Origin: Steroidobacteraceae bacterium
GTDB taxonomy: Bacteria; Pseudomonadota; Gammaproteobacteria; Steroidobacterales; Steroidobacteraceae
DNA: 64,000 nucleotides
Reading direction: 5' to 3'
NCBI GenBank assembly: GCA_036494165.1
Contig: DASXOQ010000084.1
Coordinates: 40,859-104,858, forward strand
Of this stretch, positions 1 to 16,963 are shown one piece after another. The notes beneath the pieces are model-generated. The model saw only the letters and a list, made by a program, of their open reading frames with translations, ran no database searches and was not told where the DNA came from. Each line of letters starts with the position of its first letter. Position 1 is the stretch's first letter. The position numbers were made by a program, and so were the translations under genes.

Positions 1-307
1 GCTCTATCCATCCAATGCGCTCGAGCGCCGCATCATCGCCGCAAACGTGCCCACCGCCATCCCCGGCGCGGATCCGAAGGATCACATCCTGGTGTTGCCG
101 CCTTTCGGTACGGACCTAGTCACCGTGCTCGCGTTCGAGAAGCAGCCGGAGTTTTTCGCGGCATTGACCGGGGCCGACAAGTTTTCCTATGACAGCACGC
201 GGGCGCAGGCCTTGAGCAAGGGTCTGGCGAACATCGGCGGCGAACTCAGCATTCACCAGGTCAGCGTCAACACCTATCCGGCGACCACCAACATCAGCTG
301 CAAGTAG
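1..307 (+). CDS. 3' end of a CDS entering from upstream; C-terminal region looks DUF4384-like
   Basis: The frame is open from base 2 (LYPSNALERRIIAAN...) to TAG 305-307; the track ORF 47..307 merely begins at an internal GTG. ...DHILVLPPFGTDLVTVLAFEKQPEFF parallels ...DHFMVMITETPRDFSALAL near the C-terminus of the caspase gene 1924..3570. Confidence 0.4.
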   Translation, partial: LYPSNALERRIIAANVPTAIPGADPKDHILVLPPFGTDLVTVLAFEKQPEFFAALTGADKFSYDSTRAQALSKGLANIGGELSIHQVSVNTYPATTNISCK

Positions 308-310
308 CCC

Positions 311-1927
311 GTGGGCATCACCGATTGGCTGTTAAGACCTCTAGGCTGGTTGTTCGCACGCCATCCTGACTGGCGCGACGCCTTCGGCCGGCTGCTGCTT
401 GCCGCGGGCGTCCGTTTCTACGTAGCGCTCGCCCTCGTGGTGGCGGCGTTCGGTGCGTGGAACCTGCTCTCGCATCCCTTTGACAATCAACTGGCGCACG
501 ACAGCTTCGATCTTCTGATGCGGCAGAGGCCCATCGCCTATCGGCCGGATGCGGATGTCGTGGTGCTCGACATCGACGAAGCGAGCCTTGCCGCCATGAA
601 CGCCGAATACGGCCGCTGGCCCTGGCCCCGCAAGGTGCTTTCCTCGGTGGCCGCGCCGCTCGAGGCGGCGAGGGCGCGTGCGGTGGTGTTCGACATCCTG
701 TTCACGGATGCGGATGTGGCGAACCTGGAGAGCGAGGCGGCGTTCGACCGCTACGTAAGGGCGAGCCGCGTCTCGTTCTTTCCGGCGATTCGCCTGAATC
801 CGAAGAACGATGCGGCCAGTGAGGTTCCGGTGTCGTTGTTGAATTTCGCGAGCCCGGATCCCGAAGCTCCCGGCATCGCGCTAAACGCGCACCGCACGCT
901 CGCCATCATGACACCGTACTTCAAGAGCATTTATGACAGCGGCCGGGTCGGCACCAGCAACATCTATCCCGACAGCGACAACATCGTGCGCTGGTATTCG
1001 AGTTTCGAGCCGTTGGCTGGATACAAGATTCCCTCGTTGCCTTACAAGGTGGCCGAACTGCTCAAGTGGCCGCTGCCGAAGCATGCGCACAACCTCATCA
1101 ACTGGCCCAAGGGCATCGCTCCCTACCGCACCATCAGTTTCGTGCGCGCCATGGCCGCGGCCAAGGCCAATGACGGCGCCTTCTTTGCGCAGTTTGCCGG
1201 CAAAGTCGTCGTGGTCGGTTCCACCGCGGCGGACTTGGGCGATATCAAGGCAACCCCGGTGGACGCCCAGTATCCCGGCGTCTATGTGCTCGCGACGGTG
1301 CTGGACAACACCAAGAACGATCGCTATTTGAAGCCCTTGAATCCCTGGCTCATCTTCTGCCTCGAACTCGCGCTGCTCATGGCTTCGGCGCTGCTGTTCA
1401 GCCGCACCAATCAGGCCCTCGCCATCGCCAAATATTTCTTCATCGTGCCGGCGGTGCTGTTCGCGCTCTCGCTCGCCTCGGTCAGCGTCAGCAACTGGCT
1501 GGTGGATCTGTCGGTTCCCGCCGCCCTGGTCTTGGCGTACTTCACCTTCGCGAAGCTCTTCGACGCGAATTTGCGCGACTTCATCGCCGGCACCGGTCCC
1601 TTCCTCGCCACCGCAGGTGAAGTGACCGGTCGCCTGCAGGTAGCCTGCCTGCCGGCGAGCGAACCGCGTGAGCGGGTGCTGCAGCTGCTCATCGACTGCC
1701 GGCCGGTGGTCAAGCTATGGGAACCGGACGCCGCAGGTATGGGACGACGTTGGCGCGATCAGGGCTGGGTGCTGTGGCGTTGGGCGGCGGCCGGCGCGGC
1801 GGGCGAGGAGGATGCGATCCCACCATCACTTCCATTATGCTGGGTGGACGTGCCGGGCAACACCGACGCTTCCTTTCCTCTCGCCGAAGCGCTGGCATCG
1901 GCCGGACGGGCCATGGAGAAAAAATGA
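311..1927 (+). CDS. CHASE2 domain-containing membrane sensor with no recognisable output domain
   Basis: GTG start 3 nt after the upstream stop. N-terminal TM helix (LLLAAGVRFYVALALVVAAFGAW), then a ~300-aa periplasmic region with CHASE2-type motifs (VVVLDIDEASL, GRWPWPR, VVFDILF, GSTAADLGDIKATPV), then three C-terminal TM helices. The ~130-aa cytoplasmic tail has no kinase, cyclase or GGDEF motifs. Its stop overlaps the next start (ATGA, 1924-1927). Confidence 0.8.
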   Translation: MGITDWLLRPLGWLFARHPDWRDAFGRLLLAAGVRFYVALALVVAAFGAWNLLSHPFDNQLAHDSFDLLMRQRPIAYRPDADVVVLDIDEASLAAMNAEYGRWPWPRKVLSSVAAPLEAARARAVVFDILFTDADVANLESEAAFDRYVRASRVSFFPAIRLNPKNDAASEVPVSLLNFASPDPEAPGIALNAHRTLAIMTPYFKSIYDSGRVGTSNIYPDSDNIVRWYSSFEPLAGYKIPSLPYKVAELLKWPLPKHAHNLINWPKGIAPYRTISFVRAMAAAKANDGAFFAQFAGKVVVVGSTAADLGDIKATPVDAQYPGVYVLATVLDNTKNDRYLKPLNPWLIFCLELALLMASALLFSRTNQALAIAKYFFIVPAVLFALSLASVSVSNWLVDLSVPAALVLAYFTFAKLFDANLRDFIAGTGPFLATAGEVTGRLQVACLPASEPRERVLQLLIDCRPVVKLWEPDAAGMGRRWRDQGWVLWRWAAAGAAGEEDAIPPSLPLCWVDVPGNTDASFPLAEALASAGRAMEKK

Positions 1928-3570
1928 ATACCGGGATGAGCCTCAATTGCATGCTCCCGTGCATCGCTTCGCTGCTGATGGCGCCGGCGTTCGCACAACA
2001 ACCCCAGGGCGACGCGCCGCACCTGGACAAACCCGCGGTGCAGCAGTCGCCACTCGCTCAGCTCAAGGACGGACGGCAGGCCGGCAACAACAACCAGATC
2101 CTGTCCACGGGCATCCGTGAGATCCAGCCGGGGTTTCCGCCGCCGCTGCCTTCAAATCACGCGCTCATCATCACGGTATCCGAGTATCAGAGGAGCCCGC
2201 TGCCGGGTGTGCTGACGGACCGCAAGCTCGGCATCGAGCTTGCGCGGCGCTTCGGCGTGCCGCAGGAAAACATCGTCGAGCTGTCGGAAACCCAGGTGAC
2301 GCGCGAGGGTTTGCGGCAGGCGTTCGCCACCCTGAATCAATCCATCATGCCGGGCGACAAGCTGTACGTGTATTTCTCGGGCCACGGTGCGCGCTTTTTC
2401 AACAAGGCCACCAATCAATGCACCGAGAGCATCGTGACGCAGGACATGAAGCTCGTCACCAATGTCGAATTCGCCGCCATGATCAAGCCGCTCGCGGCCA
2501 AGACAGACAAAACAATCGTGATGCTCGATTCCTGCCACTCAGGAGGAGTGGCGCAGGCCGCGGGAACGCGCTCACTGCCGCTGGATTTTCGCTCCAAGTT
2601 CAGCCCGGAGGTATCGAGTCCGCAATGCAGCGTGCCGGTGAATCTCGGCAGCTTTGCCACTTCCCGCGGCGCCGATTTTCATACCACCGACCACAATCTG
2701 GTGATCCTCGCCGCCGCCCGCAACAACGAGGTGGCCTGGGACACATCGAAGGGGGGCGCCATGACCTACGCCTTCGAACAGTGTCTGGCGGGCGGCGCCA
2801 CTGATTCCGATCACAGCGGCTCGCTGTCCATGCAGGAACTGGCCGACTGCGTGCAGGCGCGCCTCGACAAGACCCAGGAACAGGCGGCGCGTCAGCACGC
2901 CACGCTCGCAGGCAATGCGGGTCTGGTCCCGGCCATGACCGACGCGCCGCCGGTGCCGCAACCGGCAACCCCGCCGGCCGGCGCGACCGCCCCCGCGCCG
3001 CCCGCCGGGCCGTCGAGCGTCAGCATCGTGGCGGCCCTCACCGACATCTACAATCAGCGCGACGATCGCTGGACCGTGGATGCCAAGGCCGGCTCGCCGC
3101 TACTGAAGATTGGCACCAACATGACCCTCAAGGTAGCCTCCGATCACGAAGGCTACGTGTATGTGTTTTATCGCGGCACCTCCGCGGACAGTTTCTATCT
3201 TCTTTTCCCAAATCAACTCGATGCCGACAACCACATCGCCGCCAATCAGCAACTCGCCTTGCCGCGGAACAACTGGAATGTGACGGCCCTGGGACCTGCC
3301 GGCACCGACCATTTCATGGTGATGATCACCGAGACCCCCCGGGATTTTTCCGCCCTTGCGCTGCCCGCTGCGTACGTGAGCCAGGCGGGTCCCTTCGAGA
3401 AAATCGCGCCCAACCCGCAAGCGGTGGCGAGCGTCGGCCAGGCGGCCACTTTGTCATCGGCGTTGGCGAGGCCGGAATGCAAGAGCGCGCAAAACCGCGA
3501 TCTCGGCGTCGCCAAACGTTGCTCCAACGTGTTCGGCGCGAGCTTGCTATCGGTCGAGGAGACCGACTGA
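1924..3570 (+). CDS. Secreted caspase-family (peptidase C14) protein with C-terminal DUF4384 domain
   Basis: The ATG at 1924 gives a Sec signal peptide (MNTGMSLNCMLPCIASLLMAPAFA). Caspase His/Cys dyad: YFSGHGA (His codon 2383-2385) and LDSCHSGG (Cys codon 2533-2535). A Pro/Ala linker leads to the DUF4384-like block LKIGTNMTLKVASDHEGYVYVFYR...LLFPN. The track ORF start at 1717 lies inside the CHASE2 gene and was rejected. Confidence 0.85.
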   Translation: MNTGMSLNCMLPCIASLLMAPAFAQQPQGDAPHLDKPAVQQSPLAQLKDGRQAGNNNQILSTGIREIQPGFPPPLPSNHALIITVSEYQRSPLPGVLTDRKLGIELARRFGVPQENIVELSETQVTREGLRQAFATLNQSIMPGDKLYVYFSGHGARFFNKATNQCTESIVTQDMKLVTNVEFAAMIKPLAAKTDKTIVMLDSCHSGGVAQAAGTRSLPLDFRSKFSPEVSSPQCSVPVNLGSFATSRGADFHTTDHNLVILAAARNNEVAWDTSKGGAMTYAFEQCLAGGATDSDHSGSLSMQELADCVQARLDKTQEQAARQHATLAGNAGLVPAMTDAPPVPQPATPPAGATAPAPPAGPSSVSIVAALTDIYNQRDDRWTVDAKAGSPLLKIGTNMTLKVASDHEGYVYVFYRGTSADSFYLLFPNQLDADNHIAANQQLALPRNNWNVTALGPAGTDHFMVMITETPRDFSALALPAAYVSQAGPFEKIAPNPQAVASVGQAATLSSALARPECKSAQNRDLGVAKRCSNVFGASLLSVEETD

Positions 3571-3571
3571 A

Positions 3572-4465
3572 TCAGTCCTTGCTGATTTCCATGAACCAGT
3601 CCGGCCCTGACTCGATTTTGTGGGCGGCCGCGTAGCTCGACTGGTTGAGCGCCAACGCCACGTTCAAAAGACTGTTGATATAGACGAGCGGCTTGCCCAC
3701 CGGCACGCTGCCGAACGTGCGCTCGTAGGGGATACGCACCTCGTCGATCAGCTTGTCGTTGTGCAGGATGCGCACGTGCACCGTTTCGCCCAAGCCGACG
3801 TGCAGTTCTTCGAAGAGCGCTTTCGGGATGTTGCTCCAGACGTTGCCGAACTGCACGTCGAGCACCGGCACGATGCCCGAAATCTTGTTGCCGGTCCTTT
3901 GTGCGCGGCGATAGGGGATGGTGATGAGCGTTTCCGGCGGCAGCTTGGGACCAACCTGCTCGAATCCGATCACGCCGGCGGCGAGTCGCGCCCCCGTATA
4001 GACGAAGACATCGCGGCCGTGAAAGGTATGTGAGTCATCCGATCCCGGACGGCGATTGACCGATTCGTCTATCTGCCGCAGCCCCTCGATGCCGTCGCGT
4101 TCGGCCACGAGCGACAAAAGGCCGTTATCGGGGCCCACGAAGTAGCGGCCGGTTTTGGTCTTCAGGACCACGGAGAGCCGTTTGGTGCCGACTCCGGGAT
4201 CAACCACGGCGACGAAGACCGTGCCCTCGGGCCAAAACTGCTCGGTCTGATAGAGCCGGTAGGCACCCTCGAAAATGCTCGGGTTTTCGTGGGACAGGTC
4301 CGAGATCAGAAGCTCCTGCGACACCGAGTAGGCGACGCCCTTCATGGCCGATACCGCGCCGTCCGAGGTGCCGAAGTCGCTGAGCAGCACCAGCGGGGCG
4401 CGTGCTTGGGCGAGCGCGGCGAGCAGCGTCAGGACGATGCCGAACGCCGCGCCCTTGAAGGTCAC
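3572..4465 (-). CDS. DUF62 / SAM hydrolase (SAM hydroxide adenosyltransferase / halogenase fold) protein carrying a signal peptide
   Basis: Family motifs LLSDFGTSDGAVSAMKGV, VAVVDPGVGT and VGPDNGLLS. The N-terminus MTFKGAAFGIVLTLLAALAQARA is a Sec-type signal peptide. GTG start overlaps the SYLF stop (GTGA). The stop lies 1 nt from the convergent caspase stop. Confidence 0.8.
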   Translation of the reverse strand: MTFKGAAFGIVLTLLAALAQARAPLVLLSDFGTSDGAVSAMKGVAYSVSQELLISDLSHENPSIFEGAYRLYQTEQFWPEGTVFVAVVDPGVGTKRLSVVLKTKTGRYFVGPDNGLLSLVAERDGIEGLRQIDESVNRRPGSDDSHTFHGRDVFVYTGARLAAGVIGFEQVGPKLPPETLITIPYRRAQRTGNKISGIVPVLDVQFGNVWSNIPKALFEELHVGLGETVHVRILHNDKLIDEVRIPYERTFGSVPVGKPLVYINSLLNVALALNQSSYAAAHKIESGPDWFMEISKD

Positions 4466-5301
4466 GGCGTCGTGGGCTTCTTCGGGTCGTCGAGCGGGAA
4501 GGTGCGGGCCGGCTCCGCCGCGGGCGGTGTGCCATTGATCGGCGGCGCATCCGCAGATGCCGGCGTGTCGGCCTGCGGTGCGGGTGAGCCGCGAACCTGG
4601 GTGCGCGTCGCCTGCGCGAGGCGCTCCAGGAAGCGCTGCGCCGTCGGCGGCGGCGTGGGCGCCTGACCGGAGAAGATCTCGGAGGCCGTCACTCCGCTCT
4701 TGTGGTAGAAGTCCGCGTTCGCCGAGCGGTCGATGGAGATCACGCTGCCGTCGAGCGCGATGCCGCCGAAGAGCCCGCGGGTGCGCGCGTAGGAGTAGAT
4801 CTCCGCATTGAACTGGATGTCGGTGGCGGCAGATCCCTGGCGACCCACCGGACCGGTGGCTACCGAGGCATCGGCGCCCAAGGTCAACTTGCCGCCGGTG
4901 ATGCCTTCAATGCCCGCCTTGGTGGTGAACACCAGGATGATGTCCGAGGACTGCGCGCCGGCCTGAAACCCCCAGCTGCCGCCGGTGAGCGAGATGAAGA
5001 CCGGGTTGCTCCAGGGCCCATTCAGCTTGTCGCGCACCACCAGCACGCCGTTGCCGTGTCGGCCGCCGAAGATGAATGCGACCTTGGTGACATCCGGTAT
5101 CACGGCGATGCCGTAGGCATGGGAAAGAAGCGTGTCCGGCAGCCTCACATCGGGCATGGCCTGAACTTCCTCCAGCACTTCCGTTGCAGTGAGCAGACGT
5201 CCTTCCTCGCGCGCCGATCCTGCGCGCGCCACGCCTGCCAGACTCAAGGCAAGAGCAGCCAACAGAAACAGGCTGGTCAGAAAATTCTTGTGGGACATCA
5301 A
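4462..5301 (-). CDS. Exported SYLF (Ysc84/DUF500) lipid-binding domain protein
   Basis: Signal peptide, then the SYLF core GIAVIPDVTKVAFIFGGRHGNGVLV...SWGFQAGAQSSDIILVF...LTLGADASVATGPVGR, then a Pro-rich tail. An AGGAG RBS precedes the ATG. Confidence 0.8.
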   Translation of the reverse strand: MMSHKNFLTSLFLLAALALSLAGVARAGSAREEGRLLTATEVLEEVQAMPDVRLPDTLLSHAYGIAVIPDVTKVAFIFGGRHGNGVLVVRDKLNGPWSNPVFISLTGGSWGFQAGAQSSDIILVFTTKAGIEGITGGKLTLGADASVATGPVGRQGSAATDIQFNAEIYSYARTRGLFGGIALDGSVISIDRSANADFYHKSGVTASEIFSGQAPTPPPTAQRFLERLAQATRTQVRGSPAPQADTPASADAPPINGTPPAAEPARTFPLDDPKKPTTP

Positions 5302-5380: not shown

Positions 5381-8074
5381 TTAATGTACGGGGACTTGAA
5401 GTTGCGCCGCGTCGGCTTCGCGGTGATGCTCGAGAAAGTACTCGGTGAGTCGCGCCGTGGTTTTCATGGCATCCGGATGCTGCGCTCCCAGCACCGCGGT
5501 GAGCTGTTGCTGCGCCGCTGCCAACATCGGCTCGCCTTCGATGTCGCGGCCTTCCTTGATCAATACCCAGCCGAGGCTTGCGCGCACCCGCGCGATGCGC
5601 CAATTATCGGCTCCGAATGCCGATATGTTGATATCCAGTGCCTTGCGCAATTCCGACTCCGCTGCGGAGAGTTGTCCTTTCGCCAGAAATATCTCGCCCA
5701 GGACGCGTCGCGTGGAGGCCACATAGGCGTGATTCGCCGGCAGGGTGTTGGAGTAGATGTCGAGCGCCTCTTTGGCATCGGCCTCGGCACCGTCAAGATC
5801 GTTGTCTTGCAGCTTAAGGTCGGCCAATCCATCGAGCCGGTAGGCATGCATGTAGTGATGGCTGCCCACTTGGGCGGTGGTGAGCTTGAGTGCGTCTTGC
5901 GCGAGCGAGATGGCATGCTTCAAATCCCCCGTATAGGCATACAGAGTCGACAGGCTTTCCTCCACGAACGAGACCCGGGGGTTGTCCTGCCCAAATACGC
6001 TGCGTTCGATGTCCAGCGTCTCGTGAAGTACCGCATCGGCCTCGGCGTACTTGCCGGTCTGAACCAAAATGTATCCCAAGGTGCCCATTGCCTCGGTGCG
6101 CTCAGGATTGGAGCGAGTGACCACCTCCAGGATCTTCAAGGCGTCGCGCTGTTCCTTTTCAGCAGTCTTGAAGTCTCCAGACCACGTGGAGGCCGCGGCC
6201 AGTGAGTTGTAGCTCTCGCCGATGTCGAAGGCGCGATCGCCTGGCAGCGCGCGGTAAATCGCCAGCGCATTCCTGAACAGGCTGCGGGCGCGGACCGGAT
6301 CGCTTTCGGCGGCGAGCACCATGTGACCGTATTGCAGATAAATGTCGGCCGTCTGCCGGCTTGCCGGTCCCCCCACATCGGAGAGTGCGAGCGCTTCCTG
6401 GATGTAACCCTCGGCGGCGGCGAAGTGTCCGCCATCGGACAGGGCGCGCGACAGATCGGCGAGCGAGGCGGCGACCAAGCGATTGTCCACCGGGCTCATG
6501 TCCTTGCGGATGGCCACCGCCTGTTCGAACAGCGGAATCGCCCGATCGTAGTGGCCCTCGTGCCGATAGGCGAGGCCGATGCTTTCCAGCAATTCGGCGC
6601 GAACTTCAGGGTGCAGGGATGTATTGTCCCTGATCCGCGCCTCGCCGGCGTCCAGCAGATCCTTTGCGGTCAATTCCTTGCCCTGGGCTGTGAAAGGGTC
6701 GGCGGCGGAAAATACATTCACCAGGAAGCCCGAGACCTCCTGAGCGCGCTCGCGTTGTTCTTCCGCGGCCTGCTTTTCCTTGTTGATCTGAATGTTTTGC
6801 CGCAAGGTGAGGACGGCGACGAATGCGATGCCGAGAAATATCACGCCCGTCACCACCGCGCCGAGCAGGTGGCGGCGTAGGAACTTGACCGAGTTGTAGC
6901 GCCAGTCCCCCTGGCGGGCGCGCACCGGCTGTCCGGCAAGATGGCGCCTCAGATCATCCGCCAGCGCTTCGACCGAGGGGTAGCGGCGGTCGGGTTCCTT
7001 GCGCATCGCCATCGCCACGATGGCATCGAGATCGCCGTTCAAGCGCGCGCGCAGACGCTCCGGGGGCGAGCCGCGCCGCGCCGCGATGCGCTCGCGGTCC
7101 TCATCACTCTCGTCCTTGAACTTCGCCATCACCATCTGGCTGGGACGCGCCGGTTCGTCCATGCAGATCGCGCGTTCCAGCTGCAGTTGGCTGTAGCTCA
7201 ACAGCCGATAGGGCGAGCGGCCCGATAGCAGCTGATAGAGGAGCACGCCCAGGGCGAAGACGTCGGTCGCGGTGGTGATCGGCCGTCCCAGCACCTGCTC
7301 GGGGGCGGCGTTTTCGGGGGTGAGGATGCGCTCCTGCAGCCGCGTCACGGGCAGGGTATGCGCCAGGCTTTCCGGCGCCAAGAGCTTCGCCACCCCGAAG
7401 TCCAGGAGCTTCGGCGTGCCCTGATCGGTGACGTAGATGTTCGAGGCCTTGATGTCGCGATGGACGACTAGGTTGCGATGTGCGTAGTGCACCGCCGAGC
7501 AGACCTCGACGAACAACTCGATGCGATCGCGCACTATCAGACTGCGTTGATCGCAATATTCGTCGAGCGAAACCCCGTCGACCAAGTCCATCACCAGATA
7601 GGGCGTGCCATCCTCGAGTTCGCCGCTGTCGCTCAAGCGGGCGATGTAGGGATGGTCGAGCGTGGCGAGGATGTGGCGTTCGCTATGCAGCCGGCTGCGC
7701 AGCCGCGGGTGCAGCGCCGCGCCCTGCAACACCTTCACGGCGACTGCGCGCGGATTCGCAGTTTCGCATTCGCCGCGGTACACGGTGCTCATCCCGCCAT
7801 GCCCCAGCACCGAGACGATGCGGTAGCGCCCGACCTGCGTGCCGATCAACCGGTCGCGGTGGTCCTCGAGCAGCGACTCGGCGGCGGCGCCGACCGCGTG
7901 CTGGAACGGGTCCCCGTGCTTCATGTCGGAGTCGAGCAAGGACTGCACGGAAGCGCGCAGCTCGGCGTCGTCGCCGCAGCGCTCTTTCAGCTGCCGGGTG
8001 CGGGCCGGTTCCTCCAGGTCCAACAATTCGTCGAACAACACATGGATCTGTTGCCAGCGCGCTCCGGTTTTCAT
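5381..8074 (-). CDS. Transmembrane Ser/Thr protein kinase with periplasmic TPR region
   Basis: Hanks kinase motifs GHGGMSTVY, AVKVL, HRDIKASNIYV, DFGVAK and AAPE. One TM helix (LLGAVVTGVIFLGIAFVAVLTL), followed by ~470 aa of TPR-like repeats. ATGA overlap with the sigma gene stop (8071-8074). Confidence 0.9.
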   Translation of the reverse strand: MKTGARWQQIHVLFDELLDLEEPARTRQLKERCGDDAELRASVQSLLDSDMKHGDPFQHAVGAAAESLLEDHRDRLIGTQVGRYRIVSVLGHGGMSTVYRGECETANPRAVAVKVLQGAALHPRLRSRLHSERHILATLDHPYIARLSDSGELEDGTPYLVMDLVDGVSLDEYCDQRSLIVRDRIELFVEVCSAVHYAHRNLVVHRDIKASNIYVTDQGTPKLLDFGVAKLLAPESLAHTLPVTRLQERILTPENAAPEQVLGRPITTATDVFALGVLLYQLLSGRSPYRLLSYSQLQLERAICMDEPARPSQMVMAKFKDESDEDRERIAARRGSPPERLRARLNGDLDAIVAMAMRKEPDRRYPSVEALADDLRRHLAGQPVRARQGDWRYNSVKFLRRHLLGAVVTGVIFLGIAFVAVLTLRQNIQINKEKQAAEEQRERAQEVSGFLVNVFSAADPFTAQGKELTAKDLLDAGEARIRDNTSLHPEVRAELLESIGLAYRHEGHYDRAIPLFEQAVAIRKDMSPVDNRLVAASLADLSRALSDGGHFAAAEGYIQEALALSDVGGPASRQTADIYLQYGHMVLAAESDPVRARSLFRNALAIYRALPGDRAFDIGESYNSLAAASTWSGDFKTAEKEQRDALKILEVVTRSNPERTEAMGTLGYILVQTGKYAEADAVLHETLDIERSVFGQDNPRVSFVEESLSTLYAYTGDLKHAISLAQDALKLTTAQVGSHHYMHAYRLDGLADLKLQDNDLDGAEADAKEALDIYSNTLPANHAYVASTRRVLGEIFLAKGQLSAAESELRKALDINISAFGADNWRIARVRASLGWVLIKEGRDIEGEPMLAAAQQQLTAVLGAQHPDAMKTTARLTEYFLEHHREADAAQLQVPVH

Positions 8075-8643
8075 CGGCGGTGGCCTTCGATTTCGTCCAG
8101 CAGCCAGGCGCGCGCGAGGCGGATCTCGCGGTGCACCGTGGCCGGAGAAGAATTCTGCGCCGCCGCGATTTCCTCGTAGGTCATGCCGCCGAAGTAGTGC
8201 AGCTCGATGACCTCGGCCAGCCGCGGCTCGAGCTCGGTGAGACTTTCCAGTGCATCGTCGAGCGCGATGACATCGACGTCCAGATGCGGCGGGGTTTCCC
8301 CAGGGTTGTGCGACGCAAAATTGAAAAGCGCGGGATTGCGTTTCCCTCGGCCGCGCGACTTCGCATGATCGACCAGCACGTGGCGCATCAAGCGCGATGC
8401 CAAGGAGAAGAAGTGCGCGCGGTCCTGCAGCGCCACATTGCCCTGGATCAGTCGCACGAACGCCTCATGCACCACGGCAGTGGCCTGCAGGGTGTGGCTG
8501 CCGCGTTCGGCACGCATGTAGCTGCGGGCAAGCTTGCGTAATTCCTCGTAAACCAGAGGCGCAAGCCGGTCGAGCGCATCGGGCTGTCCGGAACGCCAGT
8601 CCGAGAGGAGCTGAGTGAAGTTGACCGGGGCTGGCATCGTCAT
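8071..8643 (-). CDS. ECF-type RNA polymerase sigma factor of the kinase-associated (TIGR02999 / ECF43-like) kind
   Basis: N-terminus FTQLLSDWRSGQPDALDRLAPLVYEELRKLARSYMRAE and C-terminal HTH YFGGMTYEEIAAAQNSSPATVHREIRLARAWL. Translationally coupled to the Ser/Thr kinase. No anti-sigma gene is adjacent. Confidence 0.85.
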   Translation of the reverse strand: MTMPAPVNFTQLLSDWRSGQPDALDRLAPLVYEELRKLARSYMRAERGSHTLQATAVVHEAFVRLIQGNVALQDRAHFFSLASRLMRHVLVDHAKSRGRGKRNPALFNFASHNPGETPPHLDVDVIALDDALESLTELEPRLAEVIELHYFGGMTYEEIAAAQNSSPATVHREIRLARAWLLDEIEGHRR

Positions 8644-10947: not shown

Positions 10948-12128
10948 AACATCGACACGAAGATCTGATAGACGTTCGCGTCGAAATTGTAGAGAGGCTC
11001 TTCGCCCACCGGGAAGCCGCCGCCGGCCGGGGTGTCGTTGAAGTTCTTGATGTTGCGGAAGTCGCTGTACTTGAACTGCAGGCGGGTGTACTCGCCCGTC
11101 ACGGTGCCGCGCTTGAAGATGTGCAGGCAGCCGGTGGGGCAGAACGCCCAGGTGCCCTTCAGGTCCAGCTGGTTGTTGATCGATGCGGCGAGATTCTTGT
11201 CGCGTCCCTCGAAGTTGAACTCATCGGGCTGCGTGAACAGGTCGCTGTAGAAGGTCGCGGCCGTCTGGTTGTAGTGACGCAGGCGCGCTTCGATGATGAA
11301 CCTGTTCGAGAACGGCTGGGTGTAGCCGAGCTCTTCGGTGTTGGCACGGATGCCCCAAGTGTCGTTGAAATAGCGATACGACAGCGCCACTGCAGCGCGG
11401 TAGGGGAGGTAGTACTTGCCGCGCACCTCCACTGCGGTGCTGGTGTGGGTGTTGGGATAAATCTGCGATGCGAGGCTGTATCCCAAGGCGGCGGTGGGAT
11501 CGATGTAGCGCACCGAGCGATAGGGATTGCTCAGAAGACCCTGGTCGGTGATCACTTCGAGCGTTGCGCCGGTGATGAAATTCTTGGTGATGATCTGCGA
11601 GACGCCGGCTTCGTAGCTGCGGCTCTCGGCGTGCCCCAGCCAGCTGACCTTCGGGTCGTTGGCCGTGCCGTTGTTCTCGCCGACCTTGTCGCGGCTGTCG
11701 GAGAAGCCCAGCGACACGGTGGTCAGATCGCCGAACATGTCCTGACTCAGGGAGAAGTGCACGGTGTTGGAGGTGTAGTCGCGCTCCGAACTCTGCGTGT
11801 AGGCAAGATTGTAGGTGGTCTTGTCGTGGATGAATTCCAGCGACAGGCTTTTCTGCTTGCGCTCGTCCTTGATGACGCTGGCGTTGGACAGCACGTCCAC
11901 CGAGGCGCCGCTCACCTTGTCGATGAAGTAGTTGCCTTCGACGGCGAAGTTCTCGCCGAACTTCTTGCGCACCAGCACCGACTCGCCGGTGATGTCCATG
12001 CCGCCGCCCTTGTAGCTGCTGTAGAAAATGTCGGCGCGATCGTCCGGCAGCACTGCGCTGCCGACGTTCATCGAGACGAGCACGCCCCAGGCGGCAGCGA
12101 GGCATAACAGTGGTGCGCGCAAATTCAT
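10941..12128 (-). CDS. DUF3570 family predicted outer-membrane beta-barrel protein
   Basis: Signal peptide, alternating beta-strand pattern and aromatic C-terminus (...FVSMFY). The N-terminal block DIFYSSYKGGGMDITGESVLVRKKF... is typical of DUF3570. It follows DUF4266 and TlpA genes, the usual DUF3570 neighbourhood. Confidence 0.7.
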   Translation of the reverse strand: MNLRAPLLCLAAAWGVLVSMNVGSAVLPDDRADIFYSSYKGGGMDITGESVLVRKKFGENFAVEGNYFIDKVSGASVDVLSNASVIKDERKQKSLSLEFIHDKTTYNLAYTQSSERDYTSNTVHFSLSQDMFGDLTTVSLGFSDSRDKVGENNGTANDPKVSWLGHAESRSYEAGVSQIITKNFITGATLEVITDQGLLSNPYRSVRYIDPTAALGYSLASQIYPNTHTSTAVEVRGKYYLPYRAAVALSYRYFNDTWGIRANTEELGYTQPFSNRFIIEARLRHYNQTAATFYSDLFTQPDEFNFEGRDKNLAASINNQLDLKGTWAFCPTGCLHIFKRGTVTGEYTRLQFKYSDFRNIKNFNDTPAGGGFPVGEEPLYNFDANVYQIFVSMFY

Positions 12129-14287: not shown

Positions 14288-16963
14288 TCAGTTCGCCACC
14301 GGTGCAACGAATGGATCGTTGTAGAACTGGGCGCCTATATCCAGCCACTCTGAGATCAACCGCAATTCCCCTGGCGTCAAGTAACCGGTGTGGTCCACCG
14401 TCGCTCCGTGGTCGGTACCGTCGAACTTCGACAGGAAGCTCGTCTGTGAGGCGAGGGCGCTGCCGGCCGCCATCGGCGGGTTCAAGACCACCGGTCCCGG
14501 CACGTCCTGCAAGATGCCCATATTAAGCGCCTGCTCATTATGTTGAAACAGCAGGATCTCATAGGATTGCAACACCGTGGGATCGATATTGCTGCTGATC
14601 GAGGTGAGGTCGAGCTGGCCGGCCGGCACCTGCACCACGTTGTTGGCGGTCGGGGCATGGCAGTTGGTGCAGGTCACGTTGGTCGCAACACCGTTCACCA
14701 TGGCGGTTCGCGAGGCCAGACTCCACATCGACTGCAGGAACGGCAGGCTCATGGAGGCCGCATTGGCGTAATGGATGGTGATGCGACATTGCGCGCTCCA
14801 CGGCACGCAGTTGGCGTTGGTGGGCGGGGACTCGTTGAGCCCGCCGACCCCGGAATAGGTCAGCGAAATGGCCGCATCGGTGTCGCCGGCCGGCAGGGTC
14901 ACGCCCTGCGTCCAGAGGGCGGTGTACAGCACGTCGGAAGTCATGAGCTGCGAGCAGGTCGTGCCGCTGCCCTTTGCGCAGCTGATGCGCGCAAGGGTCT
15001 GCGCCATGGTCTCGCCCTGGTTGGCAAACAGCGATGCGCTGGTGTTGGGGAAGGGCAGTCCGGTGGTGGGCGCCCCCGCATTCACCGCCACGGTGAGCCC
15101 CGCGCGGCCATGGGAGGTGCCGGTGGCCGTGGAGTGGCAGCCGTTACATTGCTTGATCTCGCCAGGGATCAGCTGCAGCCAGCTGGTATGCCGCGATCCG
15201 ATGCGGCGTGCGTTCTTGTCGAGCACGTCGATGGTGAAAGGCACGTTGGCCGGCACCTGGATCTGCACCGAACCGTCCGGCTGCACGGGGGCGTAGCCCA
15301 AGATCTCGCGCATCCCCATGCCGGCCGGGCCGAAGGCTGAGTTGTTGATCTTGCGCACCGTCTTGTCGGGTATCTCCACGGCCTTTTCGATGCGCACGAA
15401 GCGGGCGCTCCGGGAATAGAAGGACGCCTGGCTGGGATCGGCGGTGGCGGCGATGCTCGGTTTGGCCGTGTCGGTGCCGTCGAAGTCGTAGACGCTCGAG
15501 ATGTCGAGGAGCCCGACCCCGGCGTTGATCATGTTCGCTTGATCGGTGGTGGGGGTGGTCACGGCCGGAAACGAGGGCACCGGCAGGCGCGCCTGCATCA
15601 CCACCGGCTCGACCACCATCATGCCCTGCTCGGCGCCCAGCACCGGGCCCAGGGTGCCGGCGCTGAAGTCATAAATCCAAAGCGTGTACTGCGGCGGTGC
15701 CAGCTGCACATTGGTGCCGGCGGTATTGGTGCTGTTGCAGATCTCGGTCGCCCCCGAAACCATCACCATGCAAGGCGACCAGCTCACCAGCATGCGGTTG
15801 GTGCCGTCGTACAGCGGGTAGGCTGAGTAGAAGCGGCCGCCGAGGGAAGGCATGCTCGCATCGGTGGTCACCCCGAGGTCGGTGGCCTGAACCTGCCCGG
15901 TGACCGCCGGGTTCACGGCGGCCGGGGAGGTCGAGGAACTCGCTTGGTGGATGTCGACATAGTTGGCGGTGTCGAGCAAAAGGATGTCGCCGCCGAGCTG
16001 GGTGTTTTGCAGCGGCCGGTCGATGACGACGAGCTTGCCGTCGGCGCGCTCGCGCGCGTTCAAGAATTGGATGACGTTGTTGCTGGTGCCGGCGATGTTC
16101 GCGCCGGTGGCATGGCTGTTGGCGCCGTAAAGAAGCTGCAACCCGGTTCCGTCGACATTGGCGGTGTAAAGGCTGATCTGGTCGCCGTTGGTGACTTCCC
16201 AGCGGCTGAACACGATGTGGCCATCCGCCAGAAGCGAGGGTGCGAAGTCGTGGTTGGTGTTGAAGCTGATCTGACGCATGTTGGTGCCGTCGGCATTCAT
16301 CACGTGCAAGAGAAAGATGAACTGCTGGCGGTCATCGGTCACCGCCTGGTACTGCGGACGTCCTTCATCGAGCAGGATCGACTTGGTTGCGAGCTGTCGG
16401 GTGGAGGCGAACACGATCTTGCCGTCCGCGAGGTAGTGCGGCGAAATGTCGTGTCCCGAGGTGATGTTGTCGAAGGTCAGCTGGGTGACCACCTTCGCCC
16501 CGGCATCGTACTGGTAGATCTTCCAGTTCGGCTGCTTCGGATCGGTGTTCTTCAGATTGGGGTTGAGCGGCATGCGCAGCGAGAAGATCAGTTTCTTGCC
16601 GTCCGGTGAGACGTCGAGGTCCCGGACATCGCCCTGGCCGGTGGTTATGGCGCCGGTGACATTGGTTTCCAGTCCGCCGGCGCTCGCCTGCGCGCGCACA
16701 TACAGGTCGCCGCCGGTGATCGAGGTGATCAGATCGCGAACGTCGATGTCGTTTTTAGGCACGGGCTTCTTGATGTACGCCAGCGGATAGTTGGTAACCC
16801 CCGGCGTCAGCGACTCGCCACCGGCGAGGCCCGGCGCATGTCCGGTCGGGGCGGAGTTGCAGCCGAACAGAATCGCCCCGGCGGCGAGCAGGGCGAGCGC
16901 TCGCAATCCGTGACGCATGTCACGTCTCAATCCGGTCGTAGTTTTTTGCATCGTGCTACCCAT
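14288..16963 (-). CDS. Beta-propeller (PD40/TolB-like) lipoprotein with two CxxCH haem-binding motifs
   Basis: Lipobox ILFGC. PD40-like repeats (DVSPDGKKLIFS, SPHYLADGKIVFAS, APSLLADGHIVFSRWE). C-terminal CxxCH motifs in IKQCNGCHS and VTCTNCHAP. The start could be 16963 or 16951. Confidence 0.75.
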   Translation of the reverse strand: MGSTMQKTTTGLRRDMRHGLRALALLAAGAILFGCNSAPTGHAPGLAGGESLTPGVTNYPLAYIKKPVPKNDIDVRDLITSITGGDLYVRAQASAGGLETNVTGAITTGQGDVRDLDVSPDGKKLIFSLRMPLNPNLKNTDPKQPNWKIYQYDAGAKVVTQLTFDNITSGHDISPHYLADGKIVFASTRQLATKSILLDEGRPQYQAVTDDRQQFIFLLHVMNADGTNMRQISFNTNHDFAPSLLADGHIVFSRWEVTNGDQISLYTANVDGTGLQLLYGANSHATGANIAGTSNNVIQFLNARERADGKLVVIDRPLQNTQLGGDILLLDTANYVDIHQASSSTSPAAVNPAVTGQVQATDLGVTTDASMPSLGGRFYSAYPLYDGTNRMLVSWSPCMVMVSGATEICNSTNTAGTNVQLAPPQYTLWIYDFSAGTLGPVLGAEQGMMVVEPVVMQARLPVPSFPAVTTPTTDQANMINAGVGLLDISSVYDFDGTDTAKPSIAATADPSQASFYSRSARFVRIEKAVEIPDKTVRKINNSAFGPAGMGMREILGYAPVQPDGSVQIQVPANVPFTIDVLDKNARRIGSRHTSWLQLIPGEIKQCNGCHSTATGTSHGRAGLTVAVNAGAPTTGLPFPNTSASLFANQGETMAQTLARISCAKGSGTTCSQLMTSDVLYTALWTQGVTLPAGDTDAAISLTYSGVGGLNESPPTNANCVPWSAQCRITIHYANAASMSLPFLQSMWSLASRTAMVNGVATNVTCTNCHAPTANNVVQVPAGQLDLTSISSNIDPTVLQSYEILLFQHNEQALNMGILQDVPGPVVLNPPMAAGSALASQTSFLSKFDGTDHGATVDHTGYLTPGELRLISEWLDIGAQFYNDPFVAPVAN

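Follow-up and report, generated by a model that had tools for sequence, protein, structure and literature searches.

The stretch of DNA considered here (hereafter, the window) comprises 64,000 nucleotides (nt) of a contig from a Steroidobacteraceae bacterium (GenBank assembly GCA_036494165.1, contig DASXOQ010000084.1, positions 40,859 to 104,858), and opens with three consecutive genes, of which the second encodes a CHASE2 membrane protein and the first and third, which we name caspA and caspB, encode caspase homologues that are predicted to be exported. When such loci are compared across genomes, the CHASE2 gene and a conserved 27-residue peptide, which in caspB follows the signal peptide and precedes the caspase domain, are found to come and go together: the peptide is present at 11/11 loci with the CHASE2 gene (7/7 in the presence/absence comparison, plus further loci of the same architecture) and at 0/19 loci without it. 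This co-elimination is, at the level of sequence, the strongest evidence presented here for a partnership between the two proteins, and it supports a picture in which CHASE2 and caspB would work together, specifically, in the periplasm, with the peptide as their predicted contact point. We tentatively propose that the CHASE2 protein is a membrane-bound regulator or tether that would hold periplasmic caspB latent until a cue arrives, rather than a classical receptor of the kinase or cyclase type.

The loci were collected by a DUF900-seeded scan (DUF900 being a domain of the hydrolase encoded upstream of caspA, see below) of 185,579 species genomes, which returned approximately 47 loci from the Steroidobacterales, from one member of the Woeseiaceae and from genomes labelled only Gammaproteobacteria or Pseudomonadota. 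Three architectures can be distinguished. Type A has the order caspA–CHASE2–caspB and was found in 12 species-level genomes as well as in the window; in type B (19 genomes), caspA and caspB are directly adjacent, and there is no room for a CHASE2 remnant because only 104–243 nt separate the caspA stop codon from the first strand of the caspB caspase domain. In type C (at least 10 genomes), a hydrolase, a 483-residue protein, an OmpA-like protein and a single caspase-DUF4384 protein are encoded on one strand, often with another caspase gene upstream, the single caspase-DUF4384 gene lying downstream of OmpA and its DUF4384 match being above the cut-off. Every CHASE2 locus with enough flanking sequence has OmpA, the 483-residue protein, the TPR-DUF900 hydrolase, caspA, CHASE2 and caspB all present, and the CHASE2 gene of this family was never found outside the caspA–caspB interval. 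More distant DUF900 genes (from Hyphomicrobium, Planctomycetota, Acidobacteriota and others) had none of these partners by tblastn. Taken together, the three architectures, which span some 45 genomes (counted at species level) of the Steroidobacterales and their relatives, indicate that the core of the system consists of the hydrolase, the 483-residue protein, OmpA and a caspase-DUF4384 protein predicted to be exported, and that CHASE2 is therefore an accessory. The first-pass annotation of this DNA, made from the window only, had suggested a possible protease–sensor pair: the pairing is indeed constant in type A, where every CHASE2 gene lies between caspA and caspB and the peptide follows it, but it is not obligatory, with 19 genomes keeping caspA–caspB without CHASE2, and CHASE2 is not the centre of the system.

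The conserved peptide has the consensus V.QSPLAQL.NGR.A.NNQIL.TGIR and carries conserved GR and GIR sites. Two of the CHASE2-less loci show how it was lost. In L141, caspB reads AQQAHTREVKPDAHYAEPQLSNHALII, compared to AQQKPEPSAVEQSPLVQLRDGREAGNNTQILTTGIRTLQPESGFAQALPSNHALII in the sister locus L189, which gives the junction AQQ...EVKPDAHYAEPQLSNHALII when the two are set against each other; in L180, it reads ..SVQSPTTGIHAPAQLSNH, compared to ..VEVSPLAKVRNGREAKGNNQILTTGIRAPRLPSNH in the related L174, which gives the junction VQSP-TTGIHAP. In both cases, the signal peptide and the homologous flanks are kept, and only the core of the peptide has been excised. A single deletion cannot explain the joint loss, because the retained signal peptide separates the caspB peptide from the CHASE2 gene, and because the core was cut out with its flanks kept, the deletion of the peptide and that of CHASE2 were separate events in L141 and L180.

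The history of these losses was followed in neighbour-joining trees of concatenated proteins, built from two sets (the hydrolase with the 483-residue protein, and caspA with caspB). Type C falls outside the two-caspase clade, within which the CHASE2-bearing loci are paraphyletic. The CHASE2-less L141 nests among L006, L145 and L189 (bootstrap 0.99 in both data sets), and the CHASE2-less L179 and L180 nest among L169, L157, L184 and L174 (bootstrap 0.66 and 0.94). A large CHASE2-less clade has a bootstrap value of 0.94 in the caspase tree, and is not recovered as a clade in the tree of DUF900 hydrolase and 483-residue protein. The simplest reading of these sequence trees is a single gain of CHASE2, followed by three or more losses that left the caspase pair in place.

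In the window itself, an open reading frame listing and a direct reading of the DNA agree with the first-pass annotation on three consecutive same-strand genes and their coordinates (Table 1). The CHASE2 gene starts with GTG 3 nt past the TAG of caspA, a start that is supported because homologues share the N-terminus MGxTDWLL, and the ATG of caspB overlaps the TGA of the CHASE2 gene as ATGA, with a GGAG motif 7 nt upstream of the caspB start; the ATGA coupling is kept across loci. The first gene is cut by the window edge, and the 101-residue fragment that remains has no Pfam match by itself. The metagenomic contig L006 represents the same DNA (it matches at 11924 of the 11927 bases that overlap) and reaches 7.2 kb upstream of window position 1, and because it carries the complete gene, the fragment can be assigned to the last 101 residues of the 564-residue caspA. 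The resemblance of its C-terminus to DUF4384, noticed from the fragment, is borne out by the full protein (residues 435–507, E 4e-11, 43.3 bits against a cut-off of 27), and the extension further identifies the gene as a second, predicted exported caspase, in which the Peptidase_C14 domain (E 4e-14, 53.4 bits against a cut-off of 21.4) begins directly past the signal peptide cleavage site.

caspB likewise combines a Peptidase_C14 domain (residues 78–319, E 5e-17, 62.8 bits, cut-off 21.4) with a DUF4384 domain (residues 394–472, E 4e-15, 56.1 bits, cut-off 27), the two being joined by the Pro-rich linker that had been noted before; the E-values of the domains in the window proteins are far beyond what chance matches would give. 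Its catalytic dyad consists of His154 in YFSGHG and Cys204 in DSCHSGG, while that of caspA lies in YFSGHG and SDSC[YF]SGQ, and the dyad, already described as intact, is invariant in all orthologues of both caspases. The closest alignments of the caspB caspase domain are to plant metacaspases 4 and 9, and PDB entries 4afr and 4f6o were also matched. Judging by alignment only, the dyad as well as the aspartates of LPGVLTD and DSC correspond to the dyad and the S1 aspartates of Arabidopsis metacaspase-4, and the enzyme is predicted to be Arg/Lys-specific. The caspase domains of caspA and caspB share only ~23% identity, as would be expected of old paralogues, and caspA has no indel or other feature that tracks the presence of CHASE2. 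We predict that caspB is exported, from the N-terminal hydrophobic segment that ends in AFA before QQ in all orthologues and from the conserved cysteines, of which six are noncatalytic. In line with the earlier placement of ectodomain and caspase on the same side of the membrane, hydropathy, the AlphaFold2 (AF2) model and the N-termini predict that caspA, caspB and the CHASE2 ectodomain all face the periplasm.

The CHASE2 protein matches the CHASE2 profile PF05226 over residues 50–358 (142.4 bits against a cut-off of 26.3), with no other Pfam match and no NCBIfam match at E up to 0.01. Its homologues form >500 clusters, all of ~540 residues and aligning end to end, and those that are named come from Steroidobacteraceae metagenome-assembled genomes. 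An AF2 model built from 63 sequences (predicted local distance difference test score, pLDDT, 85.5; predicted template modeling score, pTM, 0.79) has two cytoplasmic N-terminal helices, a transmembrane (TM) helix, an α/β ectodomain (residues 59–342), three further TM helices and a C-terminal domain; hydropathy and the model thus agree on the typical CHASE2 topology of one TM helix, an extracytoplasmic domain and three TM helices. The cytoplasmic N-terminus contains the invariant residues P10, W13, F15, R22, D23, G26 and R27.

The first-pass annotation described this protein as a sensor without an output domain, which is right insofar as no output of the kinds commonly joined to CHASE2 (kinase, cyclase, GGDEF/EAL, Ser/Thr kinase) can be recognized past the last TM helix, where no Pfam match was obtained at E up to 1. 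The 112-residue tail is, however, strongly conserved, with the invariant motifs LQxACLP...KLWEP..GLG..W..QGWVLWRW...W.DV...F.LA and a modeled β-α-β-β-β-α fold (pLDDT 73). A profile of the tail, searched against 1.84 billion representative proteins, gave 21 matches, all of which belong to the same family or to fragments of it except for two repeat proteins (1822 and 802 residues), where the profile matches 12 and 8 tandem LATLPGExRRQRLxEALAAYDEALR repeats, respectively. These two matches (P0131 and P0137) are probably compositional, and the longer protein also has a P-loop-like motif. In a Foldseek search of the PDB with the tail, nothing was found below E 0.1, and only generic ferredoxin-like matches above it. 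From these searches, the tail appears to be a conserved orphan domain limited to this CHASE2 family, neither a known output nor a spacer. A more distant family member, P0139, had no loci in the genome and metagenome collections.

Other identities that we considered for the CHASE2 protein did not hold. The idea that the tail could be a decayed class III cyclase was prompted by a JGI "adenylate cyclase" label, by a related CHASE2-cyclase in L130 and by the cyclase-like tail of a Methylophilus protein, and was not supported, as hhalign against the L130 cyclase domain and the Methylophilus tail each gave a probability of 0.1%. A mobile domain reused elsewhere was rejected on the tail-profile matches just described. 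The possibility that the CHASE2 protein is a caspase-like pseudoprotease that heterodimerizes with the caspases was not supported either: the whole model had no Foldseek match in the PDB below E 0.8 and none with a caspase fold, and a sequence profile search of the PDB with the protein was empty. Finally, adjacency to caspases is not supported as a general property of CHASE2, as a caspase was seen less than 8 kb away at 0/21 CHASE2 loci sampled via the GRWPWPR motif, although this is a weak test, given the short blocks and tblastn detection. One other locus (L068, 3920–7031, Methylophilus sp.) encodes a CHASE2-only protein with an unassigned tail of ~150 residues; genes for an exported SH3_3 protein and a Peptidase_M48 come next, which hints that output-less CHASE2 proteins beside exported proteases could be a wider theme.

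Table 1. Features of the caspA–CHASE2–caspB locus and its neighbors. Positions refer to the window unless another sequence is named; aa, amino acids.
Feature	Position	Strand	Basis or remark
caspA 3′ end, aa 464–564 of 564, exported Peptidase_C14 + DUF4384 (predicted)	2..307	+	Cut by window edge; full gene on L006
Complete caspA	L006 5869–7563		Predicted signal peptide MTLRIAALLLCLIATGSAGA, cleaved before KN; YFSGHG / SDSCYSGQ; DUF4384 aa 435–507
CHASE2 membrane protein, 538 aa	311..1927 (GTG 311, TGA 1927)	+	Pfam CHASE2 142 bits; AF2 model
CHASE2 cytoplasmic N-terminal helices, aa 1–34, TDWLLxPLGWLFARxPxWRDAFGR	311..412	+	Conservation; AF2 helices 3–17, 19–32
CHASE2 TM helix 1, aa 35–53	413..469	+	Hydropathy; AF2 helix 35–53
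CHASE2 periplasmic ectodomain, ~aa 54–344	470..1342	+	Pfam aa 50–358; between TM1 and TM2
CHASE2 TM helices 2–4, aa 345–426	1343..1588	+	Hydropathy; AF2 helices 345–365, 369–393, 401–426
CHASE2 cytoplasmic tail, aa 427–538, putative conserved orphan α/β domain	1589..1924	+	Invariant motifs; AF2
caspB, exported (predicted) Peptidase_C14 + DUF4384, 548 aa	1924..3570	+	ATGA overlap with CHASE2 gene; Pfam
caspB predicted Sec signal peptide, aa 1–24, ending MAPAFA before QQ	1924..1995	+	Hydrophobic N-terminus and AxA-type site in all orthologues
caspB CHASE2-linked N-terminal peptide, aa 39–65, VQQSPLAQLKDGRQAGNNNQILSTGIR	2038..2118	+	Presence/absence across loci
caspB caspase (p20-like) domain	2155..2880	+	Pfam; His154 nt 2383–2385, Cys204 nt 2533–2535
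caspB Pro/Ala-rich linker, variable length, aa 341–363	2944..3012	+	Orthologue alignment
caspB DUF4384	3103..3339	+	Pfam E 4e-15
caspB conserved C-terminal region with Cys519/Cys533 pair	3340..3567	+	Orthologue comparison
Exported Ysc84/SYLF protein	4462–5301	-	Pfam, NCBIfam
Ser/Thr kinase with TM segment and long C-terminal TPR region	5381–8074	-	Pfam, NCBIfam; overlaps sigma gene
ECF sigma factor	8071–8643	-	TIGR02999 group, 188 bits against a cut-off of 126
TPR + DUF900 α/β serine hydrolase, 605 aa	Upstream of window		First gene of divergent operon
Protein without family, 483 aa, Cys-rich/coiled-coil	Upstream of window		Divergent operon
OmpA-like peptidoglycan-binding protein, 183 aa	Upstream of window		Divergent operon
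Extra caspase paralogue regions	L001 5028–7046 and 1–734; L162 8205–9128; L183 862–2442 and 4270–6819		

In type I metacaspases such as TbMCA2 and yeast Yca1, the N-terminal region is inhibitory. In the regulator/tether model, the periplasmic domain of CHASE2 would bind the N-terminal extension of caspB, and the protease so bound would stay latent at the inner membrane, blocked by its prodomain, much like type I metacaspases are restrained by their N-terminal region. caspB would then be freed by a cue, which could be either sensed by CHASE2 in the periplasm or relayed from the cytoplasm via the N-terminal helices and the 112-residue tail. Release might proceed by cleavage past the conserved Arg residues of the extension, where self-processing by caspB would fit because the peptide has such residues and the enzyme is predicted to be Arg/Lys-specific. 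Once active, caspB would cut envelope proteins after Arg/Lys together with caspA, and the likeliest candidate substrates or partners would be the TPR-DUF900 hydrolase and the 483-residue protein, which are obvious candidate substrates because they are co-inherited with the caspases.

We note, however, that several observations weigh against this model. In most genomes, the caspase module evidently does its work with no CHASE2 protein, such that the contribution of CHASE2 is dispensable, and the independent losses of CHASE2 are few (three events), the L179/L180 node being moderately supported, with 0.48–0.65 for the relation to its sister group. Orthologous CHASE2 genes could lie elsewhere in the type-B genomes, because the motif-based scan is imperfect and missed at least one true locus (L184). 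The sample consists of metagenome-assembled genomes only, from one uncultured bacterial order and its close relatives. Finally, the fold of the CHASE2 model gave no structural match that would hint at a mode of peptide binding.

The main rival to the regulator/tether model, which we regard as rather unlikely, is that CHASE2 is a true TM sensor, for which a peptide released by caspB or caspA is the ligand, and whose tail reports to the cell, for example to transcription, that the protease is active. Under this scenario, the perfect co-variation of peptide and receptor would be that of a ligand and its sensor, the GR and GIR sites would suit an Arg/Lys-specific metacaspase, and the tail and N-terminal helices would be expected to be as conserved as the ectodomain, which they are, since information has to cross the membrane; other CHASE2 receptors are, moreover, co-encoded with a secreted partner (FecR/LysM in Burkholderia, PMC5192318). 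However, the tail has neither a relative outside the family nor a recognizable signaling fold, the CHASE2 protein has no DNA-binding or enzymatic domain, and the extracytoplasmic function (ECF) sigma factor/kinase pair that is encoded nearby is kept at loci without CHASE2 and missing from half of those with it, so that it is not an obligate downstream partner. We favor the regulator/tether model over the ligand–sensor alternative.

An explanation of a different kind, which we consider improbable, is ordinary housekeeping or nutrient scavenging, in which the proteases and an esterase/lipase would digest polymers outside the cell or in the periplasm, DUF4384 and OmpA would anchor them to the wall, and CHASE2 would tune expression or activity to the substrate. 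The surroundings of the locus are compatible with such a role: it lies among ordinary chromosomal genes (glycogen metabolism, a TonB-dependent receptor and a cation/proton antiporter), carries no mobile-element or defense-island marks, has no specific PADLOC match and has promoters that look sigma70-like, and bacteria commonly have exported caspase homologues (PMC3501461). Four to six specific proteins, one of them a coiled-coil protein without a family, are nevertheless tightly co-inherited, which suggests a dedicated machine and not a collection of digestive enzymes, and the extra caspase paralogues, the prodomain-like peptide and the clade-specific linkage to an ECF sigma factor and a Ser/Thr kinase also speak against it.

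It is very unlikely that there is no functional link at all, i.e., that CHASE2 is an inherited insertion in the operon and the absence of the peptide a deletion byproduct or a matter of shared ancestry, since, although one deletion could take both the CHASE2 stop and the caspB start, which overlap, although a single large clade accounts for most CHASE2-less loci and the independent events are thus few, and although the 21 unrelated, randomly sampled CHASE2 loci were without a caspase within 8 kb, the type-B loci retain the signal peptide between the CHASE2 gene and the peptide, the precise excisions in L141 and L180 need a second deletion, the CHASE2 family is confined to the caspA–caspB interval, and the ATGA coupling is conserved.

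The partners of the caspases lie upstream of caspA, outside the window and thus outside the view of the first-pass annotation. On L006, three translationally coupled genes on the opposite strand form an operon encoding the TPR-DUF900 hydrolase, the 483-residue protein and the OmpA-like protein (Table 1). The Ser (AHSMGN), Asp (FTAPDVD) and His (LGHSYF) of the hydrolase are kept in all orthologues, while in the 483-residue protein four cysteines are invariant and the C-terminal half is a coiled coil. More than 500 CHASE2 and 483-residue homologues are known in all. Signal-peptide-like N-termini are found in all orthologues of these three proteins and of caspA and caspB, together with conserved cysteine pairs, from which we infer that the hydrolase, the 483-residue protein and the OmpA-like protein are exported as well. 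By sequence, neither the 483-residue protein nor the DUF900 domain nor the DUF4384 region had relatives of solved structure beyond TPR repeats. caspA and the hydrolase operon diverge from a shared region of 153 bp (L006 5716–5868) that contains 3 sigma70-like sites against 0.1 expected, and the motifs GAAATCATAA and GTGTACAATGAAAAT are shared by the sequences preceding caspA in L001, L012 and L018. Control of the module by an ECF-type promoter is not supported, the divergent region being sigma70-like and the upstream alignment poor.

The presence of the hydrolase allows for a wider, quite improbable reading, in which the periplasmic caspases, freed from the grip of CHASE2 on the caspB propeptide, would cleave the TPR-DUF900 hydrolase and/or the 483-residue protein and thereby unleash a phospholipase-type activity on the membranes of the cell itself or of its neighbors. 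Such a protease-activated, membrane-damaging effector is a possible reading because a DUF900 relative, cinquedea, is a bactericidal phospholipase A (bioRxiv 10.64898/2026.06.10.730825). If true, the module would do in the periplasm what caspase-like suicide or defense systems do in the cytoplasm, with an optional dedicated receptor.

Downstream of caspB, the window carries an operon for an ECF sigma factor, a Ser/Thr kinase and a Ysc84 protein, of which the first two, being adjacent, have the features of TIGR02999 sigma/kinase pairs. This operon adjoins the module in L004, L006, L009–L012, L140, L141, L146–L153 and others, with or without CHASE2, and is absent from the L001/L013/L018 clade. 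It is unlikely to be an obligate output of the module, because type-B loci retain it whereas half of the type-A loci lack it. A search with PADLOC-DB 2.0 gave generic matches only (caspase, a MotB-like match that corresponds to the OmpA domain, and kinase) and nothing for CHASE2, the 483-residue protein or DUF900, and membership of a known antiphage defense system was rejected on these generic matches.

A number of further observations concern the surroundings of the module. Extra caspase paralogues lie in or beside it in L001 (672 residues), L162 (307 residues) and L183 (526 residues); L001 also has a TPS/ESPR hemagglutinin-like gene, and in L183 a PLD-like phospholipase gene lies between the genes for the hydrolase and the 483-residue protein. 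In L004 (1–1625), the gene for a Peptidase_C14 + FGE-sulfatase protein lies a few genes away from the module, which illustrates how rich these genomes are in caspase homologues. In the window, an S-adenosylmethionine (SAM) hydroxide adenosyltransferase (SAM_HAT_N/C, 3572–4465, minus strand) has a signal-peptide-like N-terminus, MTFKGAAFGIVLTLLAALAQARA, which is odd for a SAM-using enzyme, and only some loci carry its gene between those for caspB and Ysc84. Farther along (14288–16963, minus strand), an 891-residue protein combines an HZS_alpha middle domain (hydrazine synthase, E 4e-16) with PD40 repeats, and is unrelated to the caspase module.

To our knowledge, CHASE2 domains have neither a known ligand nor a known partner, and we know of no exported bacterial caspase homologue with an assigned role. 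The locus offers a testable pair, namely the CHASE2 ectodomain and a 27-residue peptide of a protease, for which the CHASE2-less genomes serve as natural "knock-outs". If the interaction were confirmed, caspB would be the first CHASE2 partner, and CHASE2 would act as the regulator of a protease instead of feeding into a kinase or cyclase. Beyond this pair, our analysis defines a conserved, predicted periplasmic module of four to six genes, comprising caspase, DUF900 hydrolase and OmpA, that is confined to uncultured Steroidobacterales and their relatives.

We found no paper that joins CHASE2 with CHAT domains, and none on clusters of exported caspase, DUF4384 and DUF900 proteins or on a module of this kind; DUF4384 is barely mentioned in the literature, being noted only as a domain that is often fused to proteases and kinases, and exported bacterial caspase homologues are described as frequent but uncharacterized (PMC3501461). 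Caspase–CHASE2 combinations are known as fusion proteins with a cytoplasmic caspase (PMC3501461, PMC2853523, PMC8195603). The cyanobacterial caspase–CHASE2 fusions (e.g., from Trichodesmium erythraeum) and the EACC2-caspase-CHASE2 proteins, like the present locus, combine C14 with a CHASE2 domain with one plus three TM helices, and have been interpreted as a protease under the control of a receptor. In the fusions, however, a single polypeptide has the N-terminal cytoplasmic caspase as output and CHASE2 as input, whereas here the genes are separate, the caspases are predicted to be exported to the CHASE2 side, there is no EACC domain (NCBIfam caspase_w_EACC1, 44–48 bits against a cut-off of 140) and the cytoplasmic side is the orphan domain. 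The Burkholderia "BiofilmReg" operon, in which a CHASE2 histidine kinase is co-encoded with a secreted FecR/LysM partner (PMC5192318), is similar in that a CHASE2 membrane protein is genetically linked to an exported partner, which probably encounters its ectodomain in the periplasm, but has a PAS-HisKA-HATPase kinase, a response regulator and a nonprotease partner, whereas the present locus has no kinase and a caspase partner with a dedicated peptide.

The type I metacaspases (TbMCA2, Yca1; PDB 4afr, 4f6o) share with caspB the His/Cys dyad and an N-terminal extension before the p20 domain as a possible prodomain, and their acidic S1 pocket for Arg/Lys has a predicted counterpart in caspB. They are, however, cytosolic and regulated by calcium, whereas caspB is predicted to be exported and its extension is unrelated in sequence and tied to a co-encoded membrane protein. 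In Craspase (type III-E CRISPR), the TPR-CHAT protease Csx29 cleaves Csx30, which binds an ECF sigma factor, and some Csx30 C-terminal domains are DUF4384 (bioRxiv 10.1101/2022.08.17.504292). Here, too, a caspase-fold protease, DUF4384 and an ECF sigma factor occur in one neighborhood, and Craspase provides a precedent for protease-controlled sigma regulation; yet it is cytoplasmic and RNA-guided and has CHAT rather than C14, while in our case all but the sigma factor, the kinase domain and the CHASE2 tail is predicted to be extracytoplasmic, and the sigma/kinase linkage is clade-specific. Cinquedea, secreted by Haloferax, is an α/β hydrolase most of whose homologues carry DUF900, and is the only relative in the DUF900 family with a measured activity that we found in the literature. 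It and the hydrolase of the divergent operon can be likened at the level of the family as secreted or exported DUF900 hydrolases, but cinquedea is a single-gene archaeal toxin without TPR, caspase or OmpA partners. Viewed against these systems, the sequences described here suggest a variant of the prokaryotic caspase module with a new kind of CHASE2 partnership.

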